Program-made: the position numbers and the translations under genes
Notes under the pieces: generated by a model
The model's input: only the letters and a program-made list of their open reading frames with translations
Told to the model about the DNA's origin: nothing
Database searches by the model: none
Assembly: GCF_003790525.1 (NCBI RefSeq)
Contig: NZ_CP033635.1
Length of the DNA: 64,000 nt
Direction: 5' to 3' (one strand)
Source of the DNA: Escherichia coli
GTDB taxonomy: Bacteria; Pseudomonadota; Gammaproteobacteria; Enterobacterales; Enterobacteriaceae
In this document: piece by piece, positions 15,976 to 16,486 of the stretch
Numbering within the stretch: the first letter of the stretch is position 1
Layout: each line of letters begins with the position of its first letter

Positions 15976-16178
15976 ATACGGGATTTTTAAAAATCACTAA
16001 AGAACGCCCAAGAGCATGTGTTTTCTTTAGAATAATCAAAGCGTTGGATTGCCATGTCATATGAAAATCGGCAAAGTTCATATGTAACAAAGTGTCCCAA
16101 TCATGCCCCAAAATGCCCCACAACAAATATTTTTGCCCCATGCATGCCCCAAAAAATCACTTTCCCTCACCCTTGACA

Positions 16179-16222
16179 CTGTTTATCTATACAGTTAAAA
16201 ATAACACTGTATATAAACACAG
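16179..16222 (+). promoter_or_regulatory. promoter with two tandem LexA boxes upstream of the dinI-like gene
   Basis: TTGACA at 16173-16178 followed by CTGTTTATCTATACAG (16179-16194) and CTGTATATAAACACAG (16207-16222), both fitting CTGT-N8-ACAG. Confidence 0.6.
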
Positions 16223-16237
16223 TATAGAGGGACTTTT

Positions 16238-16486
16238 ATGCGTATTGAGATCTGTATCGCTAAAGAAAAATTCAGCAAAATGCCAAAAGGCTCTGTACCT
16301 GCTCTACAACAGGAAATGTCTCGCCGTATCAGAAAACGATATGACGATGTGGAGGTTATAGTAAAATCCGCCAGTAATGACGGACTGACCATTTTAAGAG
16401 CCGTAGATAAAGAAAACGCTCAGAAGTTCATACAGGAAACGCTGCAGGAAGTCTGGGAAACTGCTGATGACTGGTTTTTTCACTAA
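16238..16486 (+). CDS. DinI-like protein (prophage moron)
   Basis: 82-aa [31 protein letters not shown]...[16 protein letters not shown], DinI-family pattern with conserved C-terminal motif. Confidence 0.8.

Follow-up and report, generated by a model that had tools for sequence, protein, structure and literature searches.

Two strong LexA-box matches precede a dinI-like gene at the end of a yecE-integrated prophage of Escherichia coli

At the left end of a lambdoid prophage of Escherichia coli (contig NZ_CP033635.1), the outermost gene encodes a protein of the DinI family, and its promoter carries the two best matches to the LexA operator in the whole stretch of 64,000 nucleotides that was analysed (hereafter the window). 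We consider it probable, at roughly 85%, that this is a LexA-repressed unit which would be released during the SOS response and whose product, a paralogue of the chromosomal DinI, would occupy the groove of the RecA filament and tune the co-protease activity of RecA. A first-pass annotation of the same DNA had proposed a gene of this kind under two LexA boxes; that finding is accurate and its interpretation sound, and the module itself is common and already annotated in Shiga-toxin phages. The present analysis adds only modestly to this, by recognising that a second operator is conserved and that both boxes match unusually strongly in the allele of the window.

The yecE prophage and the promoter of its first gene

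The prophage interrupts yecE and spans roughly positions 15983-60827 of the window, that is about 44.8 kb. The genes aspS and yecD and then the first ~35 codons of yecE reach about position 15982, the truncated yecE N-terminus being read at 15880-15990, and the remainder of yecE resumes at about 60837. Both junctions share the core TTAACTG(C/T)GTG (Table 1), and strain TUM1886 has this junction in its annotation. Genes for tail fibres, tail, head, terminase, lysis and replication lie on the minus strand of the prophage, and PHROG matches identify a CI-like repressor, regulators resembling Cro and CII, an Ant-like protein and a tyrosine integrase. The phage location that had been assumed for the dinI-like gene is thus borne out both by the interruption of yecE and by this lambdoid gene content. 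The resident repressor matches PHROG 4 and PHROG 6201 ‘CI-like repressor’, and its S24 domain predicts a self-cleaving CI type that would be stimulated by RecA. An anti-repressor homologue of the Ant/KilAC type (56534-57391, plus strand) lies in the early-left operon and coexists with this S24-type CI.

Going inwards from the left junction, at the tail-fibre/att end, the dinI-like gene comes first. Seventeen matches to TGYCCCA were counted in the window, seven of which cluster at the prophage ends: five as direct repeats on the left, and two at 60747-60764, inside the 3' end of the integrase gene and near the other junction. These repeats are probably arm-type binding sites of the integrase. 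The ATGCCCCA repeats are also present ahead of the dinI promoter of VT1-Sakai and in the copy found in the ydfJ-cspH intergenic region of the K-12-derived strain Stbl4.

On its other side, the dinI-like gene is faced by two convergent genes of the minus strand. The nearer one (16869-17324) encodes a 151-aa protein with a helix-turn-helix resembling sigma-70 region 4. Beside it, an Eib/YadA-type trimeric autotransporter (17386-19002) forms the cargo that adjoins dinI; it contains a tandem repeat (17808-18364) of 5.6 copies of 99 bp, or 33 aa, with 98% identity. The dinI region of the window is 85% identical to that of phage P-EibC of strain ECOR-9.

Table 1. Positions in the window of the prophage ends, of the dinI-like unit and of the control operator
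Feature	Position	Strand	Evidence and remarks
ruvAB LexA operator, TGCTGGATAGATATCCAGCG	10636-10655		Upstream of ruvA (9975-10586, minus strand); internal positive control
att core, left junction in yecE (TTAACTGCGTG)	15972-15982		Junction comparison
Five direct TGYCCCA repeats	16093-16151	+	Between att core and dinI promoter
-35 hexamer TTGACA	16173-16178	+	Perfect consensus; read from sequence and promoter scan
LexA box 1, CACTGTTTATCTATACAGTT	16177-16196		Fills the -35/-10 spacer; index 5.09; same position in 55/57 related loci
-10 region TAAAAAT	16196-16202	+	TAAAAA with 17-bp spacer or AAAAAT with 18-bp spacer
LexA box 2, CACTGTATATAAACACAGTA	16205-16224		Over predicted transcription start and 5' UTR; index 4.16
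Shine-Dalgarno GAGGG	16227-16231	+	6 nt before ATG; conserved in related loci
DinI-like protein, 82 aa	16238-16486	+	PF06183, PHROG 189, PDB 1GHH/7YWA
Intrinsic terminator	16554-16591	+	9-bp stem AGGCGTGTT / AACACGCCT, 9-nt loop, then TTTCTGATATTT; RNA fold
CI-type repressor, HTH and Peptidase_S24	53351-54118	+	Peptidase_S24 E 1.5e-16; HTH_3 E 1.3e-08
Tyrosine integrase	59497-60810	+	Opposite prophage end; PHROG 1, E 1.6e-86
att core partner TTAACTGTGTG	about 60828-60838		Right junction; junction comparison

Over positions 16173-16240 the sequence reads TTGACA-CTGTTTATCTATACAG-TTAAAAATAACA-CTGTATATAAACACAG-TATAGAGGGACTTTT-ATG. The perfect -35 hexamer and the two CTGT-N8-ACAG matches that the first-pass annotation had reported were all found where it had placed them (CTGTTTATCTATACAG at 16179-16194 and CTGTATATAAACACAG at 16207-16222). 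This pattern occurs three times in the 64-kb window, for 0.83 expected, and two of the three occurrences are the cores of boxes 1 and 2. The -35 hexamer is conserved in related loci and falls inside the promoter annotated in VT1-Sakai. Two readings of the -10 region are given in Table 1: TTGACA-N18-AAAAAT was returned by the promoter scan with 10 of 12 positions matched, and the annotation of VT1-Sakai follows the other, TAAAAA at 17 bp, with the equivalent hexamer marked as -10. Box 2, which is homologous to the ‘putative SOS box’ of the VT1-Sakai record, starts 3 bp past the -10 region and ends 13 nt short of the ATG. The operators therefore overlap the promoter, box 1 lying between -35 and -10 and box 2 over a start that is itself predicted, near 16208-16211. 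A weaker alternative promoter, TATACA-N18-TATAAA, is possible within the boxes.

The LexA operator of Enterobacteria is a 20-bp palindrome, TACTG(TA)5CAGTA, with invariant CTGT-N8-ACAG positions, and proven sites have a heterology index of about 13 or less. Every 20-mer of the window (about 64,000 positions) was scored with a symmetrised LexA matrix, as a heterology-like index of the Berg-von Hippel/Lewis form. Open papers giving a heterology-index matrix or a site list were sought; since none of them gave sequences, 21 known E. coli K-12 sites served to construct the matrix, and only two of these were confirmed in genomic sequence (ruvA, upstream of ruvA in the window, and dinI, in MG1655). 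Box 2 ranked first (4.16) and box 1 second (5.09). The ruvA operator came third with an index of 7.74, or 9.04 when left out of training; the latter is close to 9.19, which we take to be its published value. More generally, the published indices of the ruvA and dinI sites were approximately reproduced by the matrix.

As a null model, 200 first-order Markov simulations of 64 kb were run. They contained no site with an index of 5.2 or less and 0.005 sites per window with an index of 8 or less, the best site overall having an index of 7.8. Because the boxes hold ranks 1 and 2 and no simulated site falls below 7.8, the two-box observation is real and far beyond chance. Both boxes match all eight invariant CTGT/ACAG positions, lie well within the index range of proven sites and outscore the majority of genuine K-12 operators, so that the identification of these palindromes as LexA boxes stands up to weight-matrix scoring, ahead even of ruvA. 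In the rest of the prophage, the matrix scan of the window returned no LexA-like site better than 12, and the boxes of the dinI promoter are its only strong LexA site. The fourth-ranking 20-mer of the window (TACTGTAAATTATTACATGA, 59973-59992, index 12.1) lies within the integrase gene; it is most likely a chance match, as about 0.2 such sites are expected per window.

The DinI-like protein and its transcription unit

The product of the gene is a single-domain protein of the size expected for the family and matches the Pfam DinI model PF06183 over its full length (E 2.9e-19, model positions 1-63 of 63). It also matches PHROG 189 ‘RecA filament binding protein DinI’ (E 2.8e-27) and, over residues 1-79, the DinI of PDB entries 1GHH and 7YWA (E 3.4e-13). 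Assignment of the ORF to the DinI family, which the first-pass annotation had proposed, is thereby supported. With K-12 DinI the protein shares 48% identity. It scores 71.3 bits against the NCBIfam DinI equivalog NF007893, whose cut-off is 111, and its gene lies in a prophage rather than in the pyrC-bssS context of the chromosomal dinI; on both grounds we classify it by sequence as a paralogue of the chromosomal DinI, not as its orthologue. The gene is thus additional to the chromosomal dinI, as had been supposed. Identical protein sequences are found on 404 public contigs, where they are named ‘DinI-like family protein’.

In the cryo-EM structure of DinI on RecA, the DinI residues L13, L21, W71, W77 and F78 form a pocket for RecA loop L2, and E24, E69 and D76 form an acidic patch (PMC9926225). 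These contacts were mapped by hand on alignments of the prophage protein to DinI. Seven of the eight are identical, L21, E24, E69, W71, D76, W77 and F78 corresponding to L23, E26, E71, W73, D78, W79 and F80, and the eighth is a conservative change, from L13 to M15. With its filament-contacting residues so conserved, binding of the prophage protein to RecA filaments appears well supported by inference. The chromosomal protein (b1061; PDB 1GHH, and 7YWA with the RecA filament) has the same fold family and size, and both keep the C-terminal LQExWExADDWF helix. The chromosomal gene is likewise monocistronic with a preceding LexA box. Its promoter, however, reads TTGTCA-N17-TATAAA with a single box over the -10 (index 5.8), whereas that of the prophage has a consensus -35 and two stronger boxes.

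An intrinsic terminator follows the prophage gene. The terminator scan missed this hairpin because its loop exceeds 8 nt, and it was found by RNA folding; its homologue in related loci shows compensatory changes. No plus-strand ORF of at least 30 aa is present in the ORF list between 16487 and 16868, an AT-rich gap that extends to the convergent gene at 16869. Given this terminator and the lack of such an ORF downstream, dinI is predicted to form a one-gene transcription unit with its own promoter and its own terminator. By virtue of the latter the unit may be moron-like: morons are autonomous units with a promoter and terminator of their own, inserted between conserved phage modules and dispensable for lytic growth, and the promoter, the terminator and the position between the att site and the tail-fibre and cargo genes would fit that description. 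Unlike classical morons, it is predicted to be silent in an unstressed lysogen.

A transcript of this kind might also act through its RNA. In Klebsiella, the small RNA DinR is cut from the mRNA of the LexA-controlled chromosomal dinI and represses ftsZ (PMC10907235). By this precedent, the 3' end of the prophage dinI mRNA would be processed to a small RNA and the protein would be secondary. The ~105 nt that follow dinI in most related prophages are indeed highly conserved, with a hairpin of invariant loop and a terminator, and this element persists even where dinI has been lost. The 3' UTR of the window has, however, lost the conserved hairpin of other prophage dinI genes and keeps the terminator only, which makes an RNA-centred function unlikely for this allele. 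Moreover, its fold is unremarkable (z = -1.9) and its U-tract poor, Rfam returned no match for the window region or for four related loci, and the ORF is intact with its functional residues conserved. Overall, we regard an RNA as the main product of the window gene as very improbable.

The conserved 3' element deserves a description of its own. It consists of a GGCTGG...CCAGCC hairpin with an invariant loop of ~24 nt (AATCATTCAATACTCGCACTATCG), followed by a terminator with compensatory changes, and was located at 1409-1510 of locus L034, at 1849-1960 of locus L001 and in about 40 other related loci. In the Rfam scans of related loci it had no match. Of 5,426 complete E. coli genomes, 5,405 contain it, with 17,479 matches in all, a number that far exceeds that of dinI. 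It could be an undescribed RNA derived from the 3' UTR or a leader of ykgJ-like genes. In the core genome of E. coli 536, the ecpE-ykgJ intergenic region (locus L092, 2440-2680) holds a decayed dinI-like 3' end together with the element. From these remains upstream of ykgJ, this gene seems to occupy the relic of a prophage end of the VT1-Sakai kind, in which a ykgJ-like gene comes after dinI. The Stbl4 ydfJ-cspH copy (locus L091, 2440-2600) has retained the repeats and the element, and dinI is deleted from it.

Conservation of the module and comparison with known systems

In order to follow the promoter across related phages, IMG/VR was scanned. The scan yielded 198 related loci, 80 of which were kept, and 57 of these had enough upstream DNA. 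The layout of -35, box 1, TAAAAAT, box 2 and Shine-Dalgarno is kept in 55 of the 57; of the other two, one has a single box and one has none. The spacing from box to box varies between 26 and 28 bp in these relatives, which argues against strict cooperative or helical phasing of the two sites. Among 29 distinct loci, the 66-bp promoter has a median identity of 94% to the window, versus 72% for the coding sequence. Selection on the promoter, together with mosaic exchange, is indicated by this difference. The promoter of the window is 95-97% identical to that of mEp460-type loci, whose coding sequences are only ~71% identical, and in VT1-type loci the coding sequence is closer (83%) and the promoter more distant (~80%). 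Judged by these identities, the unit of the window is a mosaic of an mEp460-type promoter and a BP-4795/VT1-type coding sequence.

A single LexA box, over or next to the -10, was seen in Gifsy-1, in mEp237, in two Klebsiella phages and at the chromosomal dinI. Since these distant phage genes and the chromosomal gene have one box, the two-operator layout is, on sequence comparison, a hallmark of the dinI genes that E. coli lambdoid phages carry next to att. The unit of promoter and gene is widespread: of 5,426 complete E. coli genomes, 2,076 (38%) carry it, in 4,047 copies altogether and with up to 8 copies per genome. Among the matches listed, the copies covering most of the query were all annotated ‘DinI-like family protein’.

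The closest described counterpart is H0001 (DinI) of VT1-Sakai/Sp15 (AP000400), a homologous module in which dinI, as in the window, is the prophage gene closest to the att site at the tail-fibre end. Equivalents are the dinI genes of Stx1 and Stx2 phages, BP-4795, cdtI, mEp460 and P-EibC. Modules of this type share with the window the succession TTGACA, box 1, TAAAAA(T), box 2 and Shine-Dalgarno, with ATGCCCCA repeats upstream, and their DinI proteins are 63-84% identical to that of the window. The VT1-Sakai record annotates DinI, a ‘putative promoter’ and a LexA-bound ‘putative SOS box’, which corresponds to box 2 only. The two systems differ in the strength of the boxes, which is lower in VT1-Sakai (index 9.3 and 10.0, against 4.2 and 5.1 in the window), and in the downstream region: in VT1-Sakai the conserved 3' element comes next, along with a ykgJ-like gene, and the window has neither.

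The dinI homologues of the Salmonella prophages Gifsy-1, -2 and -3 are the prophage versions on which reporter and deletion experiments have so far been done, and they are distant ones. They accumulate after mitomycin C and are controlled by LexA; nalidixic acid induces them 4.6- to 23-fold, and replacement of the promoter abolishes the response (PMC3121763, PMC8072944). Non-polar deletions of dinI in Gifsy-1 and in Gifsy-3 did not significantly alter induction (PMC3121763). The window gene resembles them as a prophage-borne member of the DinI family, with LexA control being experimental in Gifsy. There, dinI opens an operon that also contains an antirepressor gene and irsA, and the likeness raises the prospect that the promoter serves mainly a co-transcribed small antirepressor, with dinI as a passenger. 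The arrangement of the window is nevertheless a different one. Its dinI stands alone, closed by a terminator and followed by no plus-strand ORF of at least 30 aa before 16869, and it lies at the att/tail-fibre end, whereas the Gifsy genes lie in the nin region after a terminator. The Gifsy promoters have one LexA box, overlapping the -10, where the window has two, and the proteins are only about 43% identical. Gifsy repressors are not cleaved, whereas the repressor of the window prophage has a Peptidase_S24 self-cleavage domain and would therefore need no antirepressor. The Ant-like gene at 56534-57391, finally, has no LexA-like site nearby in the matrix scan, in which no local score is better than 16.2. 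An antirepressor operon of the Gifsy type is thus largely refuted by the sequence, and we hold an induction switch of this kind to be very improbable here.

Further variants are the Tum antirepressor of coliphage 186 and the split tum/dinI of PSP3 and Fels-2, all of them phage genes under LexA control with a DinI-like module (PMC3121763). Their DinI-like part belongs to, or lies beside, an antirepressor that brings induction about, a partner that the window gene lacks. That a phage dinI would limit induction of the Stx phage which carries it has been suggested for Stx2a phages, in a speculative sentence (PMC8456039). Apart from this sentence, a search of the accessible literature for experiments on E. 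coli prophage dinI returned annotation-level mentions only. A preprint on radioresistance of EDL933 was considered as such an experiment and rejected, as it concerns the chromosomal dinI.

That the palindromes might instead be chance AT-rich inverted repeats, or Int, Xis or IHF sites of an att arm, with a gene that is constitutive or silent, is suggested by the distance of only ~20 bp from the promoter to the putative arm-type repeats and of ~190 bp to the att core, yet it can be dismissed as extremely improbable, given the complete match to the CTGT/ACAG positions with scores beyond those of most K-12 operators, a chance expectation of essentially zero in the simulations, the presence of both boxes in mEp460-type phages that have an integrase gene and not an att arm directly upstream, and the single-box LexA sites that precede distant DinI homologues and the chromosomal dinI.

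Predicted behaviour of the unit and its significance

Control of the dinI-like unit by LexA remains the preferred reading, and the following course of events is proposed for it. In an undamaged lysogen, LexA dimers on both operators would shut the promoter, occupancy of box 1 blocking the -35/-10 spacer and box 2 covering the predicted start. After DNA damage, RecA filaments would form, LexA would cleave itself and the promoter would fire. The 82-aa DinI paralogue would then be made from a monocistronic mRNA ending at the hairpin terminator, with the 3' end expected near 16585-16591. The groove of the RecA filament that DinI binds is also used by LexA, UmuD and lambda CI (PMC9926225). In this groove, the prophage paralogue would be expected to stabilise the filaments and to compete with UmuD, LexA and CI-type repressors, adding a phage-encoded dosage of DinI to the SOS circuit of the host. 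Cleavage of the prophage's own S24-type repressor could in this way be delayed or damped.

What the analysis establishes is the features of the sequence, the protein family, the conservation and the genomic setting; that LexA binds, that SOS induces the gene, that its product binds RecA and that prophage induction is affected in any way are steps that we infer. For SOS control of the window gene, the precedents in the VT1-Sakai annotation and in Gifsy are strong, and by analogy the gene is expected to respond in the same way. An effect on RecA co-protease activity and on prophage induction is plausible. Since the Gifsy deletions were without effect, the physiological consequence may be small.

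A more elaborate proposal sees the promoter, with its double operator and consensus -35, as a specific adaptation of the att-proximal dinI genes in lambdoid phages of E. coli, which would keep the gene fully off at basal or transient SOS and then let it fire strongly. Phage-supplied DinI, whose gene reaches 8 copies per genome in poly-lysogens, would occupy the RecA groove and set a damage threshold or delay for the cleavage of CI-type repressors and UmuD, acting as a commitment filter that is shared in trans among co-resident prophages. The greater conservation of the promoter than of the coding sequence is compatible with such a filter; we nonetheless consider it unlikely.

For the window locus itself, the value of these results lies mainly in annotation: it is a clean two-operator variant of a known module, and no unit of the yecE prophage other than its dinI is predicted to be under LexA control. 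Should the prediction for the module hold, extra DinI would be expressed during the SOS response in many E. coli lysogens, including Shiga-toxin strains that carry the module in several copies, and this could shift the readiness of prophages for induction, the release of toxin and SOS mutagenesis.
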